Shown here: positions 4,369 through 59,823 of the stretch, one piece after another
How the letters are laid out: each line of letters begins with the position of its first letter
Position numbering within the stretch: position 1 is the stretch's first letter
Notes under the pieces: model-generated
Databases searched by the model: none
What the model was told of the DNA's origin: nothing
The model's input: only the letters and a program-made list of their open reading frames with translations
Assembly (NCBI GenBank): GCA_963730325.1
Contig: CAVSRC010000006.1
Location: 2,693 to 66,692, forward strand
Origin: an uncultured Alphaproteobacteria bacterium
GTDB lineage: Bacteria; Pseudomonadota; Alphaproteobacteria; Rhizobiales; Kaistiaceae
DNA: 64,000 nucleotides
Direction of reading: 5' to 3'
Position numbers and translations under genes: made by a program

Positions 4369-5415
4369 GTGACAGGGGCAACGCGCGACGCATCGAATGC
4401 CGTCTCGCCCGATGGCGGCCACACCGGCAGCACGATGGTCATCGCGCTCAGCCTGCGGCTCGTCAGCATCGGCCCCCTGCTGATCCTCATCGTTCTGGTG
4501 GCGGGGATCAGCCTGCTCACGCCGTATTTCCTGACGCCCATCAACATCAAGAACATCCTGGCGCAGACGGCGGTCATCGCCATTGTCGCGCTCGGTCAGC
4601 ATCTGGTCATCCTGACCAGGGGCATCGACCTTTCGGTGGGCTCGAACCTGGCGCTGGCCACCGTCATTGGCGGCCTGCTGTTCCGGGTCACCAACTCGGC
4701 GGCGCTGGTCATTGCGGCGATCCTCGTCACCGGCGCGCTTGTCGGTTTCGTCAACGGCGCCGTCTACGTATTCGGGCGCCTGCCGCATCCCTTCATCATC
4801 ACGCTCGCGACCCTCAGCGTCTGTCGCGGTCTCGCGCTCGAATTGTCGATCGGGCACACCACCATGCGTGGCATGCCCGACGCCGTCGTTGCCGTCGGCA
4901 GCGGAGAAACCTTCGGCGTTCCCAACGCCTTCTTCGTGGTTGTCCTGGTCGCGATCGCCATCTTCGTCATGGCGAAATTGATGGTCTGGGGCCGCTGGAC
5001 CTACGCCGTCGGCGGCGAGCCGGAAGCGGCCGTCGAGATGGGCATCCCGGTCAAGTGGGTGCTGCTGTCGACCTATGTGATCTCCGGCCTGTGCGCGGGA
5101 ATCGGCGCGGTCGTGCTGGCGGGCCGCACGGCGGCCAGTTCGCCGCTCTACGGCAACCTGCTCGAGCTCGACACCATCGCCGCGGTCATCATCGGCGGGG
5201 CGAGTTTCCTCGGCGGCCGCGGCCACATCGGCAACGCGCTCGTCGGCGCCGTCATGATCGGCGTCATCCGCAACGCCCTCAACCTGCTCGACGTCGACGT
5301 GTTCTTCCAGATGATCGCCATCGGCCTGGTCATCGTTGTGGCGGTCGAGGCGGACGTGCTGCGCAACTATCTGGAAGGGCATGCCCGCACCCTCCAGGCA
5401 GCGAGGGCGCAATGA
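4369..5415 (+). CDS. Sugar ABC transporter permease (ribose/CUT2 type)
   Basis: Multi-pass hydrophobic protein with RbsC-like architecture. Its stop overlaps the ATG of the ATPase gene (ATGA at 5412-5415). Confidence 0.9.
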   Translation: MTGATRDASNAVSPDGGHTGSTMVIALSLRLVSIGPLLILIVLVAGISLLTPYFLTPINIKNILAQTAVIAIVALGQHLVILTRGIDLSVGSNLALATVIGGLLFRVTNSAALVIAAILVTGALVGFVNGAVYVFGRLPHPFIITLATLSVCRGLALELSIGHTTMRGMPDAVVAVGSGETFGVPNAFFVVVLVAIAIFVMAKLMVWGRWTYAVGGEPEAAVEMGIPVKWVLLSTYVISGLCAGIGAVVLAGRTAASSPLYGNLLELDTIAAVIIGGASFLGGRGHIGNALVGAVMIGVIRNALNLLDVDVFFQMIAIGLVIVVAVEADVLRNYLEGHARTLQAARAQ

Positions 5416-56217: not shown

Positions 56218-57159
56218 ATGAAGACCTATACCGTTCCCCACACCGATTTCACGGTGCCCAGCGTCGTGCTCGGCCTGATGCGCATCGCCAAGATGAGCGA
56301 CGGCGACATCCAGAAGCTGGTCGGCACCGCCCTCGACAATGGCATCACCTTCTTCGACCACGCCGACGTCTATGGCGGCGCCGTGCATCGCTCGGAGGAG
56401 CGTTTCGCCGAGGCGATGAAGTTCTCGGCCGCCCAGCGCGAGGAGATCGTGCTGCAGAGCAAGGCCGGCATCAACATCACCAACGGCCCCGCCTATTTCG
56501 ACTTTTCCGCCGAGCACATCCTCGAGGCGGTCGACGGGTCGCTGAAGGCGCTGAAGACCGACTATCTCGACGTTCTGCTGCTGCATCGCCCCGACACGCT
56601 GTTGGAGCCGGAGGAGATCGCCGCCGCCTTCGACAAGCTGGAGGCGGCGGGCAAGGTGCGCCGTTTCGGCGTTTCCAACCAGACGCCCGGCCAGATCGAG
56701 CTGATCAAGACGGCGGTCAAGCAACCGCTGCTCTTCAACCAGGTGCAGCTCTCGATCACCCACGCCAACCTGTTCGCGCAAGGCATCGCCGTCAACATGA
56801 ACGGGCTCGGCCAATCGGTCGTGCGCGACAACGGCCTGCTCGACTATTCGCGGCTGAAGGGCATGATGCTGCAGGCCTGGTCGCCGTTCCAGAAGGGCTT
56901 CTTCGACGGCGTGTTCATCGACGACCGCGAAAACCACGCCGAACTCAACGACGTGCTCGACGAACTGGCCGCGAAATACGGCGTGACGCCGACCGGCATC
57001 GCGGTGGCGTGGATCGTGCGCCATCCGGCCAACATCCAGGTGGTGCTGGGCACCACCAATCCGGGGCGCGTGGCCGAATCCGCCGCCGGCTCGGACGTCA
57101 CCCTCAGCCGCGAGGAGTGGTACCGCCTGTTCCGCGCCGCCGGACACACGGTGCCGTAG
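56218..57159 (+). CDS. Aldo/keto reductase (YdhF-like)
   Basis: AKR motifs GITFFDHADVYG, LDVLLLHRPD, GVSNQTPGQIE. ATG at 56218. Confidence 0.9.
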   Translation: MKTYTVPHTDFTVPSVVLGLMRIAKMSDGDIQKLVGTALDNGITFFDHADVYGGAVHRSEERFAEAMKFSAAQREEIVLQSKAGINITNGPAYFDFSAEHILEAVDGSLKALKTDYLDVLLLHRPDTLLEPEEIAAAFDKLEAAGKVRRFGVSNQTPGQIELIKTAVKQPLLFNQVQLSITHANLFAQGIAVNMNGLGQSVVRDNGLLDYSRLKGMMLQAWSPFQKGFFDGVFIDDRENHAELNDVLDELAAKYGVTPTGIAVAWIVRHPANIQVVLGTTNPGRVAESAAGSDVTLSREEWYRLFRAAGHTVP

Positions 57160-57250
57160 GGGGGCGGCTTCGGCGTTCCACGAAACACCCTGGGGTGCTC
57201 GGCCTCGACCGGGCACCCGGCAAGCGCAGGCCACGGTCTCTTGCCAATAC

Positions 57251-57322
57251 CCCCCTCCCTTCGCGCCTAACTCGCTTCGCTCCCAAGGCGCGAAGCCCTC
57301 CCCCGCAAGGGTGGAGGGGGAG
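57251..57322 (+). repeat. Double-hairpin R element, copy R1
   Basis: cccctccct + hairpin 1 (cttcgcgcc/ggcgcgaag) + ccctccccc-gcaa-gggtggaggggg. Confidence 0.7.
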
Positions 57323-57438
57323 CAAGCCGAAAGGCTCGCGCTTTGATGGCACTGCCGTCGTGTTGGGGTCCTCTCCCCCCTTGCGGGGGAGAGATAGAGA
57401 GGGGGGTACGGGCACGCACCTATCGCCACCAAGACACA

Positions 57439-57925
57439 GCTTCCCGTTCCCGCGCGCCGGAAGCACCGGGGTTTGACCTTTCAAAGAGCATCCTCATGGC
57501 CTGGACCATGAGGGGATGGCGGGCGCTCGATGAGCACCAGTCTGTAACTTTGTGGGGCGCTCAGCCGAGCGCCCGCCGCGGTGGTTTTTGCTCCGGTCCC
57601 GCCTGGGCCAGACGAAGGCAAGGCGGCTCCATCCGGACGACCGACCTTTGGACCACCACGGCGCCGATGCCGGTTTCCCGTATCGCACTGGCCGTGGCTG
57701 ACCCTCGCCTGCCTTTAGCGCTGCCCTTTCGGGGCAATGGCGCGCGGCGGAGGACAAGCCTCCGCTGGCGGGCTTCCGAGCCCACGCCGCTCCGCTTGCG
57801 AGGCGGAAACGGCGGACACCGCACCCCGCTCCCATCTCAAGACGCCTCCGGAGACGCCCCTCATTCGAGCGAGGATGCCAACCAATATGGGGGCGGGTGA
57901 GCGAGCGGGGATAGATTTCTTTTCA
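57439..57925 (-). repeat. Conserved intergenic element, copy B (candidate structured RNA), inverted relative to copy A
   Basis: The reverse complement aligns with 47515-47912 from tgaaaa...tatccccgc to ...ctttgaaaggtcaaa..cgcgcgggaacg. The central part is longer. Confidence 0.7.
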
Positions 57926-58022
57926 TGGGCGCTCGCAGAAGACGTGGATGGCCGGGACGAGCCCGGCCATGACGAGAGACTGTGAACGCGGGCGGAGGAG
58001 AGCCGCACCATCACCACAGCCT

Positions 58023-58093
58023 GAGCCCCTCACCCTGTTCCTCCAGGCTCTCTCCGTTCGCCAAGAGGAACAGCCCTCTCCCTGTGGGAGAGG
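58023..58093 (+). repeat. Double-hairpin R element, copy R2
   Basis: gagcccctcaccct + hairpin 1 (ctgttcctc/gaggaacag) + ccctctccc-tgtg-ggagagg. Confidence 0.7.
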
Positions 58094-58169
58094 AAACCCA
58101 CCAGCCGACGCCACAAGCTGCCTCTCCCGACGGGAGAGGAAATTCCGCCACAGCGCCTGCTGCGATTTG

Positions 58170-58236
58170 CCTCTCCCAAAGGGAGAGGGCTTTCGTGCCT
58201 TATGAGCGGAGCGAATTAGGCACAAAGGGTGAGGGG
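58170..58236 (-). repeat. Double-hairpin R element, copy R5 (inverted), abutting the DUF559 start codon
   Basis: The minus strand reads cccctcaccct + hairpin 1 (tttgtgcc/ggcacgaaa) + gccctctccc-tttg-ggagagg. Confidence 0.7.
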
Positions 58237-58587
58237 ATGAAGCCTGTCGGGATTGCCCGCCGTCTGCGCCGCGAGGCGACCGACGCGGAGCGGCGCCTAT
58301 GGTCACGACTGCGCAACCGGCAGGTGGGCGATGTCAAATTTCGCAGGCAGGTGCCCATCGGTCCCTTCATTGCAGATTTTGCCTCCGTCGAGGCGAAGCT
58401 GGTCATCGAAGTCGACGGCAGCCAACATGCCGAAGAAATCGAGGCGGATCGGCTGCGGTCCGATGCGCTCGGCGAGGCGGGTTACCTCGTGCTTCGCTTC
58501 TGGAACAACGACGTGCTCGACAATATCGATGGTGTCGTGAAGGAGATCGAGAGGACACTGGCCGCTCGGCCGGTGGACAATCGCTAA
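58237..58587 (+). CDS. DUF559 (Vsr-like endonuclease fold) protein
   Basis: ARRLRREATDAERRLWSRLRNRQ..KFRRQ..IG.FIADF......LVIEVDG.QH...........D..L...G..VLRFWNNDV is the DUF559 signature. ATG at 58237; the upstream part of the track ORF is translated repeat sequence. Confidence 0.88.
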   Translation: MKPVGIARRLRREATDAERRLWSRLRNRQVGDVKFRRQVPIGPFIADFASVEAKLVIEVDGSQHAEEIEADRLRSDALGEAGYLVLRFWNNDVLDNIDGVVKEIERTLAARPVDNR

Positions 58588-58592
58588 GGTCT

Positions 58593-58663
58593 CAGCCCCT
58601 CACCCTGTTCCTCTAGGCTCGCTTCGTTCGCCAAGAGGAACAGCCCTCTCCCGGCGGGAGAGG
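58593..58663 (+). repeat. Double-hairpin R element, copy R3
   Basis: cagcccctcaccct + hairpin 1 (ctgttcctct/agaggaacag) + ccctctccc-ggcg-ggagagg. Starts 6 nt after the DUF559 stop. Confidence 0.7.
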
Positions 58664-58687
58664 AAACACGTCGAGAGGCGCCGCCCC

Positions 58688-58753
58688 CTAAACCAGCCCC
58701 TCCGGGTAGACGCCGAGGATGCGCACGCGGGTGGAGAAGAACTCCAGCTCCTC
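58688..58753 (-). pseudogene. Duplicated 3' fragment of pheA
   Basis: Encodes EELEFFSTRVRILGVYPEGLV*. It is identical in nucleotide sequence to the real pheA end (58874-58954) apart from one substitution and a 15-nt in-frame gap (ASSFR). Confidence 0.75.
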
Positions 58754-58782
58754 TGGCCGCTCGGCCGGTGGACAATCGCTAA
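58754..58782 (+). pseudogene. Duplicated last 29 nt of the DUF559 gene
   Basis: tggccgctcggccggtggacaatcgctaa is identical to 58559-58587. Confidence 0.75.
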
Positions 58783-58787
58783 GGTCT

Positions 58788-58856
58788 GAGCCCCTCACCC
58801 TTCGCCTCTAGTTCGCTGCGCTCACAAGAGGCGAAGCCCTCTCCCTGTGGGAGAGG
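58788..58856 (+). repeat. Double-hairpin R element, copy R4
   Basis: gagcccctcaccct + hairpin 1 (cttcgcctct/agaggcgaag) + ccctctccc-tgtg-ggagagg. Confidence 0.7.
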
Positions 58857-58873
58857 AGACCCGTCGCCGCCCC

Positions 58874-59722
58874 CTACACCAGCCCCTCGCGGAACGAGCT
58901 TGCCGGGTAGACGCCGAGGATGCGCACGCGGGTGGAGAAGAACTCCAGCTCCTCCAGCGCCAGCGCCAGCGGGCGGTCGTCCGGGTGGCCTTCGACATCG
59001 GCAAAGAACTGGGTGGCGAAGAACTGGCCGTCGAGCTGGTAGCTCTCCAGCTTGGTCATGTTGACGCCGTTGGTGGCGAAGCCGCCCATCGCCTTGTAGA
59101 GCGCGGCCGGCACGTTGCGCACGCGGAAGACGAAGGTGGTGATGACCATGCCCTTGCCGCGGCGGGCGCGCACCTCGTCCTTCGACAGGATGACGAAGCG
59201 CGTGGTGTTGTGGGCGGCATCCTCGACGTCCTCCTTGAGGATATCGAGGCCGTGGACTTCCGCCGCGATGGCCGGGGCCAGCGCCGCCTGCGTGATATCG
59301 CCGGCCTCGGCGACCTCGCGCGCGGCACCGGCGGTATCGCCGGAGACGACGGTCTTCCAGCCGTGCCGGCGGATGATGTTGCGGCACTGGCCTAGCGCAT
59401 GGATGTGGCTGTGGACGGTCTTGATCGTCTTCAGCGTGGTGCCCCTCGGCGCCATCAGCTGGAAGCGGATGGGGAGAAAATGCTCGCCGATGATGTGCAG
59501 CCGGGAGCTCGGCAGCAGGTGGTGGATATCGGCGACGCGGCCGGCGAGCGAATTCTCGATCGGGATCATGGCGAGGTCGGCGGTGCCCTTGTCGACCGCG
59601 GCGAAGCAATCCTCGAAGGTCGGACAGGGAATTGCCTTGGCCTTCGGGTAGACCTCGTGGCAGGCGACCTCGGAATTGGCGCCGGGCTCGCCCTGGAAAA
59701 CGATCGTCTTTGGTTTCGGCAT
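58874..59722 (-). CDS. pheA: Prephenate dehydratase
   Basis: PDT domain (IVFQGEPGANSE..., TRF motif HNTTRFVIL) followed by an ACT domain. ATG at 59722. Confidence 0.93.
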   Translation of the reverse strand: MPKPKTIVFQGEPGANSEVACHEVYPKAKAIPCPTFEDCFAAVDKGTADLAMIPIENSLAGRVADIHHLLPSSRLHIIGEHFLPIRFQLMAPRGTTLKTIKTVHSHIHALGQCRNIIRRHGWKTVVSGDTAGAAREVAEAGDITQAALAPAIAAEVHGLDILKEDVEDAAHNTTRFVILSKDEVRARRGKGMVITTFVFRVRNVPAALYKAMGGFATNGVNMTKLESYQLDGQFFATQFFADVEGHPDDRPLALALEELEFFSTRVRILGVYPASSFREGLV

Positions 59723-59823
59723 GACACGCACCCCTTTTCGCGCCGTGGCTTAGCGCAGCAGGCGAGAAACGGGAAGCTTTGTCTGCCGTGTCCCGCTGGC
59801 GCTCGACGTGGCCCGTGGAACGG

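Follow-up and report, generated by a model that had tools for sequence, protein, structure and literature searches.

A DUF559 nuclease gene between inverted long-loop variants of the BoxC/PIT/TM repeat in an uncultured alphaproteobacterium, and the recurrence of this arrangement across bacterial phyla

The gene and repeats considered here lie in a 64-kb stretch of DNA (64,000 nt, hereafter the window) from an uncultured alphaproteobacterium of the family Kaistiaceae. Within the spacer between an aldo/keto reductase (AKR) gene, which ends at 57159, and pheA, the single real gene encodes a small protein of the DUF559 family, and this gene is closely surrounded by copies of a structured repeat that is designated R. 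The elements of the cluster are the following, with positions counted along the window:

58026-58093, + strand: R1, with the C-box cccctcaccct, a variable hairpin (gttcctc..gaggaac) and the hairpin ccctctccc-tgt-gggagagg
58121-58139, no strand assigned: a lone hairpin, cctctccc-gac-gggagagg, between R1 and R5, with neither C-box nor G-box
58170-58236, - strand: R5, the left arm, reading on the gene strand as cctctccc-aaa-gggagagg, a variable hairpin (gtgcct..aggcac) and the G-box gggtgagggg
58237-58587, + strand: the DUF559 gene, 116 aa, with its first in-frame ATG at 58237 and a TAA stop at 58585-58587
58593-58663, + strand: R3, the right arm, with the C-box gcccctcaccct from 58595, a variable hairpin (gttcctc..gaggaac) and the hairpin ccctctccc-ggc-gggagagg
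~58790-58856, + strand: R4, the R of the second copy of a local duplication, with the variable hairpin tcgcctc..gaggcga, compensatory changes in it and a fold z of -4.53

In its direct sense, R is built of the C-box cccctcaccct, a variable hairpin of ~35 nt and the invariant hairpin ccctctccc-NNN-gggagagg. R1 and the inverted arm R5 form a tail-to-tail doublet, and R5 and R3 stand head-to-head with the DUF559 gene between them. An initial annotation of the locus had described the gene as framed by inverted copies of one structured repeat, each running from outermost to innermost through the gggagagg hairpin, the variable hairpin and cccctcaccct; this description holds, with the refinement that the inversion concerns the architecture and the conserved blocks, while the variable hairpins of the two arms have the same fold but different sequences. 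The limits that it had given are also exact, as the last base of R5 directly precedes the ATG and R3 begins at the sixth base past the stop. Inverted-repeat alignments within the window include one of 20 nt at 85 % identity (I6) and one of 23 nt at 96 % (I3), the latter to the sister copy R4. Promoter and terminator scans detected neither a sigma-70-like promoter nor a terminator at the R elements, so that the gene probably relies on read-through. To judge from its sequence, the G-box of R5 probably supplies the purines for ribosome binding.

The invariant hairpin pattern CCTCTCCCNNNGGGAGAGG has five matches in the window, all within 58075-58856 (expected number, 0.05), and four of the five window matches to GCCCCTCACCCT fall in the same interval; no R-type motif was found in the window beyond the AKR-pheA spacer. 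Every R copy is a double hairpin when folded as single-stranded DNA, with z from -3.8 to -4.75 (-3.79 for R1, -4.59 for R5 and -4.75 for R3) and 0 of 200 shuffles equal to it. Chance as the origin of this cluster is excluded. An Rfam scan of 57200-59000 gave only sub-threshold chance matches, of which the highest, whalefall-1, scored 21 bits where the gathering score is 37, and R is therefore not a described RNA family.

R does have relatives among the repeats of Escherichia coli. The BoxC family, catalogued since 1992, is reportedly covered in work by Bergler in 1992, by Bachellier and by Hoyne and Maher in 2000. A 41-nt element, cccctcaccctaaccctctccccagaggggcgagggg, lies between ycjD and fabI in E. 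coli, recurs elsewhere in that genome and is BoxC. The same repeat is known as the PIT element and as the TMECO triplex motif (TM), with the consensus CCCTCNCCC N3-6 GGGNGAGGG N3 GGGNGAGGG (Holder et al. 2015, PMC4666352). In that study the copy beside ycjD is TMECO no. 9 of Table 1, identical in sequence to copies 16, 19 and 22; the E. coli form folds as an intrastrand triplex in vitro; and the motif is always intergenic, sometimes occurs as inverted pairs and is carried by loci that are unusually rearranged and unstable (PMC4666352). The same study states that mobility functions were 'never found' near TM, reports no associated protein and, as far as it cites the earlier work of Hoyne/Maher, credits these elements with neither promoter nor terminator activity (PMC4666352).

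The motif has the form CCCTCTCCC-loop-GGGAGAGGG-loop-GGGTGAGGG, and the blocks of R match the consensus of Holder et al. 2015. R shares with BoxC/PIT/TM the same three blocks, CCCTCTCCC, GGGAGAGGG and GGGTGAGGG(G), in that a pyrimidine-purine hairpin (CCCTCTCCC/GGGAGAGGG) is accompanied by the G-rich GGGTGAGGGG as third block; a three-block detector passes R3, R5 and their orthologues, for example as TCCTCTCCC / GGGAGAGGG / GGGTGAGGG. It is likewise strictly intergenic, present both solo and as inverted doublets and located in locally rearranged DNA, and in E. coli TMECO no. 9 adjoins ycjD, a homologue of the window gene. Unlike the canonical motif, in which the second loop is ~3 nt, R has a first loop of 3 nt and a second loop of 33-38 nt that is itself a covarying hairpin. 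Such a second loop falls outside the short-loop criterion, so R is filed as a variant and not as a canonical member, and for the same reason it would be missed by the published searches, which used loops of 1-6 nt. By its sequence, R is thus a long-loop variant of BoxC/PIT/TM. The initial annotation had overlooked this membership, as well as a tandem duplication of ~195 nt that is described below. The long hairpin in loop 2 may or may not permit a triplex, and a G-quadruplex would be an alternative fold for the G blocks of R.

The surroundings of ycjD (E. coli K-12, NC_000913.3 1351204-1351760; positions 205-761 of our locus L090) bear a further resemblance to the window. At the gene's 3' end there is a degenerate ccctctccc hairpin, followed ~30 nt on by a ~70-nt partial duplicate of the gene's own 3' end and then by TMECO no. 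9; the partial duplicate echoes the duplication in the window. Two inverted pairs of E. coli, nos 1/2 and 10/11, read as [hairpin + G-box], a gap of 16 or 27 nt and [C-box + hairpin], and are therefore arranged like the arms that bracket DUF559 genes, minus the gene. The sapF|fabI spacer in which ycjD lies has alternative occupants, ycjD and eefRABCD (PMC12817139). In the aligned eef+ strain, eefRABCD replaces the ycjD segment, homology to K-12 ending <=~10 nt from the sapF stop and ~160 nt into the fabI side of the query; in other genomes that lack ycjD, the homology on the sapF side starts at query positions 815-839, around the sapF stop at 829.

The window protein matches the Pfam profile DUF559 (PF04480) with an E-value of 3.6e-39 and 133.4 bits (cut-off 20.6) over profile positions 6-108 of 109. 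The only Pfam matches of the gene product are DUF559 and MTES_1575, with no transposase domain and no HUH/Y1 domain among them. A profile of its subfamily, which comprises >7,000 clusters, matches the solved DUF559 structure PDB 3HRL at E = 2e-38 and the catalytic domain of the homing endonuclease I-Bth0305I (3R3P) at E = 5.6e-5. With an AlphaFold (AF2) model of the window protein (pLDDT 85), Foldseek retrieved 3HRL (TM-score 0.71/0.87), 3R3P (0.63/0.74, probability 1.0) and Vsr 1CW0 (probability 0.99). By this predicted fold the protein is a stand-alone Vsr-fold nuclease of the PD-(D/E)xK type, in line with the very-short-patch-repair type of fold named in the initial annotation. Across 25 sequences of 52-100 % identity, five residues never vary (D47, E58, D60, H64 and D71); they are presumed to have the catalytic roles, as in the rest of the family. 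The window protein is 46 % identical to E. coli YcjD (E = 7e-32), and its dN/dS of 0.10-0.21 shows purifying selection on the DUF559 gene. Experimental work was found for a single DUF559 protein, VsrA of Caulobacter, which is induced by DNA damage and causes DNA damage and an SOS response when the cytosine methyltransferase ScmA is missing (PMC12907096).

Based on a survey of homologues of 45-60 % identity, taken as one genome per species and giving 80 loci among the matches listed, with the close relatives of the window standing apart, the arrangement around the window gene proved to be widespread. The loci belong to Alpha-, Beta-, Gamma- and Deltaproteobacteria, Myxococcota, Chloroflexi, Spirochaetes, Nitrospirae and others. 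In the flanks that were read, the design is near-universal: a pyrimidine/purine hairpin upstream and then a G-rich box close to the start codon, with the reverse complement of that upstream element as the downstream flank, often overlapping the end of the open reading frame (ORF) and giving C-termini of the form 'PxPxPxxGEG'. The inverted-repeat score has a median of 18 for DUF559 genes (n=81), as against 8 for control genes of the same loci (n=548) and 9 for permuted flank pairs. A score of at least 14 was reached by 68 % of the 81 DUF559 genes, 0.4 % of the 548 controls and 11 % of permuted flank pairs (Mann-Whitney p 1.5e-35), which settles in the affirmative the question, left by the initial annotation, of whether DUF559 genes are generally flanked by inverted copies of the R type. 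The three-block triplex motif was found upstream on the sense strand in 62 of 81 DUF559 genes (77 %) and 8 of 548 controls, downstream on the antisense strand in 61 of 81 (75 %) and 17 of 548, and facing inward on both sides in 46 of 81 (57 %) versus 1 of 548 (0.2 %; Fisher p 2.5e-46). Arms that are 30-76 nt long and 89-100 % identical are common, and they abut or overlap the ORF ends; in one locus (L058) they form a perfect 42-nt pair, in which the hairpin loops too are exact reverse complements. Arm sequence varies by lineage and by paralogue, and two loci (L004 and L068) each hold two genes with two arm types.

Mismatches between arms, read on the sense strand, comprise 59 G:U and 61 A:C, and the lack of a G:U excess indicates a constraint on DNA and not on pairing in mRNA. 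Pairing between the 5' and 3' ends of the mRNA (like the fbi of hok) was accordingly rejected as the main cause of the arms, on these numbers and on the absence of one-sided changes in the variable hairpin. A separate and independent trace of inverted repeats around DUF559 genes is found in Milman et al. 2023, where 'DUF559 domain-containing protein' has an odds ratio of 14.3 among predicted inversion targets, the DUF559 cases being without validation in that paper.

The units occupy short spacers between housekeeping genes: yqeY|dnaG and carA|carB in sphingomonads, trpG|trpD, trpD|trpC, glyQ|glyS, the liu operon, and positions upstream of lpdA and aroC. Units between carA and carB were also seen in Rhodospirillales and in metagenome-assembled genomes (MAGs) of a Syntrophaceae, a Kofleriaceae and a Dehalococcoidales member. 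In all, ~10 % of the sampled units lie in or beside carA|carB (L004, L013, L028, L029, L055, L068, L070, L071 and L075), in at least four phyla and in both orientations, and the Kofleriaceae copy is closest (66 %) to a Sphingobium copy, although mis-binning of that contig is possible. The recurrence at carA|carB suggests a preferred site or transfer. Within an orthologous set, the units keep one position and one orientation, seven of seven sphingomonad units being co-directional with dnaG. The proteins of the sphingomonad yqeY|dnaG units form one clade spanning several genera at 54-74 % identity, which argues for long vertical descent. Neighbour clustering was noisy, with spurious ORFs in high-GC DNA, and only the CarA, CarB and DnaG clusters were used.

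Closer to the window, proteins 82-89 % identical to its DUF559 protein exist, and three of their loci (L001, L002 and L003) were looked up; a fourth (L084) was found through its 95 %-identical PheA. The neighbouring features of these loci are as follows:

58874-59731 of the window, - strand: pheA, prephenate dehydratase (Pfam PDT, E 2.7e-58), the convergent neighbour, outside the unit
L001 3252-5940, L002 1483-5704 and L003 3918-5790: variable islands between the AKR gene and the DUF559 unit; L084 has no island

The DUF559 gene is convergent with pheA in all five loci of this clade, window included, and this synteny gives no sign of recent transposition. An inverted R abuts the ATG in all four relatives. 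R5 keeps 63-66 of its 67 nt in L001 and L002; in L084, where an 11-nt nested-hairpin insertion is present, 64 of 78 positions match. For R3 the figure is 64 of 68 nt in L001, L002 and L084. Between orthologues, identity is 91-96 % for R3 and 94-99 % for R5 (apart from the L084 insertion), against 54-77 % at 4-fold sites; both arms are thus more constrained than the synonymous sites of the gene that they enclose. Among 18 aligned R copies of the clade, the variable hairpin shows compensatory double changes at 6 of 10 pairs, no one-sided change and 96.7 % paired cells, and its covariation score of 0.346 compares with 0.107 in shuffles, 0 of 500 of which reach it. The compensatory changes and the covariation indicate that the variable hairpin is under selection for its fold; as wobble intermediates are lacking, it seems to be DNA and not RNA that is concerned. 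The lone hairpin of the window is kept together with R1 in L003, the same module of R1 plus hairpin lying at L003 6573-6700.

Gene callers read R5 as a false N-terminal extension, LPLPKGEGFVPYERSELGTKGEGM. The artefact is a common one, DUF559 ORFs being extended through the repeats at either end to give N-terminal 'LPLPKGEGF...' or C-terminal 'PxPxPxxGEG' tails (for example P0001, P0005, P0011, P0014, P0015, P0020 and many survey loci), and L056, L062 and L082 have an ORF merged with the gene that follows.

On the side away from pheA, the unit of L001-L003 adjoins a variable island whose contents include an insertion sequence (IS; DDE_Tnp_1), mazEF, a Shedu-type SduA_C gene, an HD-GerE regulator and large ORFs of no family; the island is a hot spot adjoining the repeats. 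L003 6463-6862 holds, in this order, a first DUF559 copy whose C-terminus is altered (probably by a frameshift), an R, the R1 plus hairpin module and a 5'-truncated second copy (76-aa ORF), and looks like two tandem units with an internal deletion. A clean empty site, of the kind that the initial annotation had hoped to find in related strains, was sought through PheA homologues. DUF559 is indeed absent after pheA in L085, L087 and L088 (86, 81 and 79 % PheA identity), but the region is rearranged in each and none of the three is clean. A solo R-like element of another type, gccctcaccccaccc .. cccctccccgttcggggaggg, is present in L088 at 4965-5020 (read on the minus strand), in the orientation of R3 and at a distance of ~120 nt from the stop of pheA; it may be a relic of a lost unit.

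The repeats are also found away from the gene. A metagenome scan with the long-loop pattern gave 100 matches in 80 loci, of which seven lie within 150 nt of a DUF559 homologue and 93 away from one; the gene-distant matches that were inspected are gene-less tail-to-tail doublets or solo long-loop copies. E. coli K-12 has 23 TM copies, with 22 of them away from ycjD and four identical, including the one beside ycjD, and the median across E. coli genomes is 16 TM places. For the arm type on either side of its yqeY|dnaG DUF559 gene, Sphingomonas parapaucimobilis has 49 places in ~3.5 Mb. Within 20-kb loci around DUF559 genes (~776 kb in total), 15 copies of a unit's own arm type were found away from the unit, a density no lower than that in E. 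coli. The co-occurrence of R elements and DUF559 genes raised in the initial annotation is therefore one-sided: most repeats have no gene nearby, and most genes of the subfamily lie between repeats. This is the same asymmetry as in REP/RAYT systems, so a role in processing repeats is not refuted by the gene-distant copies.

Beyond the repeats themselves, the spacer carries the marks of rearrangement, which comprise these segments:

58558-58752 and 58753-~58950: the two copies of the ~195-nt tandem duplication (families D1, D5 and D6), each made of the last ~30 nt of DUF559, an R and the last ~70 nt of pheA
58676-58752, + strand: a recent pseudo-copy of the pheA 3' end, closing duplication copy 1 (D5, 58702-58778 versus 58903-58979; D6, 58679-58702 versus 58865-88)
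58753-58787, + strand: the duplicated last ~30 nt of DUF559 with its stop, opening copy 2 (D1, 58753-58811, 93 % identical to 58558-58616)
57985-58025, + strand: the remnant of an old pheA 3'-end pseudo-copy just outside R1, of which only gtgaacgcgggcggaggagagccgcaccatcaccacagcc is kept in the window

The tandem duplication leaves both the DUF559 gene and pheA intact, and self-BLAST of the duplicated DUF559 3' end gives 27 nt at 100 %. It accounts for the origin of R4. The variable hairpins of R3 and R4 differ, with compensatory stems, so that one of them must have been replaced or converted after the duplication. A full-length (~100 nt), diverged pseudo-copy of the pheA 3' end lies outside R1 at L001 5846-5942 and L002 5786-5882, as seen from alignment with the genuine pheA 3' ends, and the block from R1 to R3 is thereby bracketed by direct repeats of the pheA end; this bracketing could be an old tandem duplication or a footprint of the block's arrival. 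Partial duplication of gene 3' ends was tried as a general footprint of such units and dropped, as it is confined to the window, L003 and E. coli ycjD and absent in the other ~80 loci.

Three known systems invite comparison. With the REP/REPIN-RAYT systems (TnpA-REP, 'REPtrons'), the DUF559 units share a single, vertically inherited nuclease gene between inverted structured repeats, a repeat that, in E. coli and S. parapaucimobilis, is dispersed in the same genome, in E. coli partly as inverted doublets, and paralogues with their own repeat types (as in L004 and L068). They differ in that DUF559 is of the Vsr-fold PD-(D/E)xK type and not an HUH/Y1 (IS200-IS605-like) transposase, and in that R is a three-block element that might form a triplex or a G-quadruplex (G4), whereas REP is a simple palindrome with a GTAG/CGTC tag. 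The DUF559 unit is therefore not a member of REP/RAYT, the resemblance being one of organisation only. I-Bth0305I, whose gene lies in a phage group I intron and whose N-terminal part is a large DNA-binding region, has a homologous Vsr-like catalytic domain and is likewise a small nuclease gene of selfish appearance; unlike it, the window protein is a bare catalytic domain with one N-terminal helix pair, chromosomal and set between repeats. Vsr has the same fold (1CW0) and Caulobacter VsrA carries a DUF559 domain; unlike for these, no methyltransferase family is present near the DUF559 gene in the gene tables of L001-L003 and L084 (~4-6 kb either side).

The reading that we favour starts from what is observed, namely the association of gene and repeats and its specificity, the conservation of both, the selected fold of the variable hairpin, the BoxC/TM identity of R, dispersed copies in two genomes and the footprints of rearrangement. 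It holds that the DUF559 gene and its two inverted R elements are one conserved module, a Vsr-fold nuclease with its cognate structured repeat, organised like RAYT with REP; we put its probability at roughly 0.45, somewhat short of even. Under such a scheme, the element would fold when the DNA is single-stranded or extruded, as the E. coli form does in vitro and as covariation suggests for the window variant. The DUF559 protein would then recognise folded or paired arms of its own type and, to go by its fold and conserved catalytic residues, nick or cut at them. Repair of the lesion could keep the two arms alike, occasionally seed solo copies and gene-less doublets elsewhere, and yield local duplications, deletions and variable islands beside the units, footprints that are indeed observed and that such repair might cause. 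The gene itself would be inherited vertically and kept by selection, with no transposon-like hopping. The initial annotation had offered two readings, a selfish, nuclease-driven mobile unit and a 'REP-processing system'. The latter fits better, with a mechanism that would have to be of the kind just outlined. From the former, a conserved unit and a relative among homing endonucleases survive, and present mobility is not supported: orthologues are syntenic, plasmid carriage is rare and there is one gene copy per locus per arm type. An identity as a transposon, IS or miniature inverted-repeat transposable element was rejected, there being no transposase domain, syntenic orthologues, few own-arm copies (those 15 in ~776 kb) and members of the subfamily on just 35 of 72,556 plasmid records, of which 29 are typed as non-mobilizable and several are megabase-sized or evidently chromosomes. 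No target-site duplication was noticed at the few arm ends read by eye (for example in L058).

A bolder extension, possible though doubtful, is that BoxC/PIT/TM and its long-loop variants are the non-autonomous copies of a bacteria-wide class of replicator, so far overlooked and either selfish or domesticated, whose engine would be a Vsr-fold DUF559 nuclease that reads a folded DNA structure (hairpin/triplex or G4) and not a plain sequence. If so, this would be a second REP/RAYT-like system, independently evolved on a different enzyme fold, and the DUF559 system would be the cause of the instability reported at BoxC/PIT/TM repeats.

A number of points weigh against the idea of a nuclease with its cognate repeat. 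No DUF559 protein is known to be linked biochemically to these repeats, nor is a way known in which a 116-aa nickase-type domain moves DNA. Roughly one-quarter to one-third of the homologues have no clear arms, and physical linkage is by itself enough to account for the way in which arm type follows gene lineage. Each of the 5,426 complete E. coli genomes contains TMs and 3,374 of them carry ycjD, leaving ~2,000 without it. Among 59 sampled rows, TM places have a median of 19 where there is a copy beside ycjD (37 rows) and 7 where there is none (22 rows; p 2e-9), but this contrast follows phylogroups and is thus suggestive only and not independent evidence; the probable independent ycjD+ lineages H93 and H94, with 15 and 11 places, do not seem richer than the ycjD- rows next to them. 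The R copies of the window are confined to one spacer, a confinement that is uninformative, given that an E. coli- or Sphingomonas-like density predicts <1 further copy in 64 kb. Lastly, the role proposed for VsrA, the one family member studied, is that of a nuclease of mismatch repair with a tie to cytosine methylation (PMC12907096).

Other explanations start from the same observations. It is unlikely that the protein is simply a host nuclease for repair or structure processing (Vsr-like, as proposed for VsrA, or removing hairpins or triplexes), with flanking repeats that act only in cis on its expression, as ribosome-binding site, operon insulation or autoregulatory sites, and dispersed copies that are unrelated passengers. 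The G-box lies 0-30 nt ahead of the start codon in most units and is purine-rich and Shine-Dalgarno-like, and the lack of a promoter-like site makes expression by read-through probable; yet regulation needs an upstream element only, which leaves an exact inverted copy downstream unexplained (as with the perfect arms of L058), earlier work, as cited in PMC4666352, credits the elements with no promoter or terminator activity, and the absence of a G:U bias is contrary to mRNA 5'-3' pairing. Purifying selection, vertical inheritance, the damage induction of VsrA with its functional link to a cytosine methyltransferase, and the persistence of the elements in E. coli lineages that lack ycjD would all suit a host nuclease, but it would not explain why the type of repeat adjacent to the gene is the type dispersed in the same genome. 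A free-standing homing endonuclease is decidedly unlikely. Such an enzyme would cut gene-less alleles, either at the centre of a left arm-spacer-right arm doublet or at the end of a neighbouring gene, and repair would copy the gene in, the arms being halves of the target. The closest characterised relative of the DUF559 protein, by sequence and by fold, is indeed the catalytic domain of I-Bth0305I, but the 116-aa window protein is that catalytic core only, with no extra DNA-binding domain. Free-standing homing genes of phages sit in spacers between conserved genes, and these units likewise occupy short intervals that separate highly conserved genes (carA|carB in Alphaproteobacteria, Deltaproteobacteria, Myxococcota and Chloroflexi; trpG|trpD|trpC; glyQ|glyS; yqeY|dnaG), whereas the sphingomonad yqeY|dnaG clade speaks for long vertical descent. 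Presence is polymorphic in E. coli, as the ycjD counts attest, and after pheA, where L085, L087 and L088 lack the gene, yet all of these absences, the E. coli eef+ strains included, are rearranged and no clean empty site was found. Gene-less doublets with a gap of 16 or 27 nt exist in E. coli, and in L001 and L002 the unit stands between ~100-nt pseudo-copies of the pheA 3' end, but solo repeats and tail-to-tail doublets go unexplained and duplication of the flank is not predicted.

Programmed inversion, with the inverted repeats as recombination sites that flip the gene, is very improbable. The enrichment among predicted inversion targets in Milman et al. 2023 and the occupation of the carA|carB spacer in both orientations by different lineages are what it would lead one to expect, but those cases are unvalidated, orientation is constant in five of five window-clade loci (convergent with pheA) and seven of seven sphingomonad loci (co-directional with dnaG), and no invertase or recombinase Pfam family was found in the neighbouring gene tables of L001-L003 and L084. 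Scarcely credible is coincidence, in the sense of structured repeats piling up in an unstable spacer with a small ORF in it by accident: rearrangement and an abundance of repeats do mark this spacer, and most R/TM copies have no DUF559 neighbour, but an inward-facing layout marks 57-77 % of the 81 homologues as against 0.2-3 % of control genes, in unrelated genomes and spacers, with arms whose junction with the ORF is exact to the base.

Both the repeat family and the protein family were known before. Their association is new within the searchable literature, in which no report linking BoxC/TM to DUF559 or ycjD was found and the main paper on the repeats would lead one to expect the opposite; most subscription journals lie outside it, and an earlier report is possible. 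For BoxC/PIT/TM, triplex folding and instability have been described and no protein partner, origin or function so far, and DUF559 is a very large family essentially without an assigned role. Their physical interlock across phyla, with both partners constrained, merges two questions into one, and the position of DUF559 between the repeats makes it the first candidate partner enzyme for the BoxC/TM family. If the link holds, genome-resident replicators of the REP/RAYT type would gain a second enzyme fold, there would be an explanation for a class of rearrangement hot spots located between housekeeping genes, and a systematic annotation error, by which ORFs are extended through the repeats at both ends, could be corrected.

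Several minor features complete the picture. The ~800 nt between the AKR gene and R1 hold no convincing ORF. Upstream of the repeat cluster there is a terminator-like hairpin at 57492-57513 (minus strand) and a palindromic stretch of ~60 nt at 57517-57578 with weak, sub-threshold Rfam matches to the same miRNA family on both strands. On a metagenome contig, L122 3510-3930 is a ~290-nt tandem duplication with a tail-to-tail repeat doublet in each copy. A second, unrelated hairpin repeat, ggccgggacgagcccggccatgacg, lies at window 57947-57975, where it translates as ..AGTSPAMT.. and truncates the pheA pseudo-copy; it recurs in the same spacer of relatives, at L003 5806-5835 and L088 ~4880-4905.

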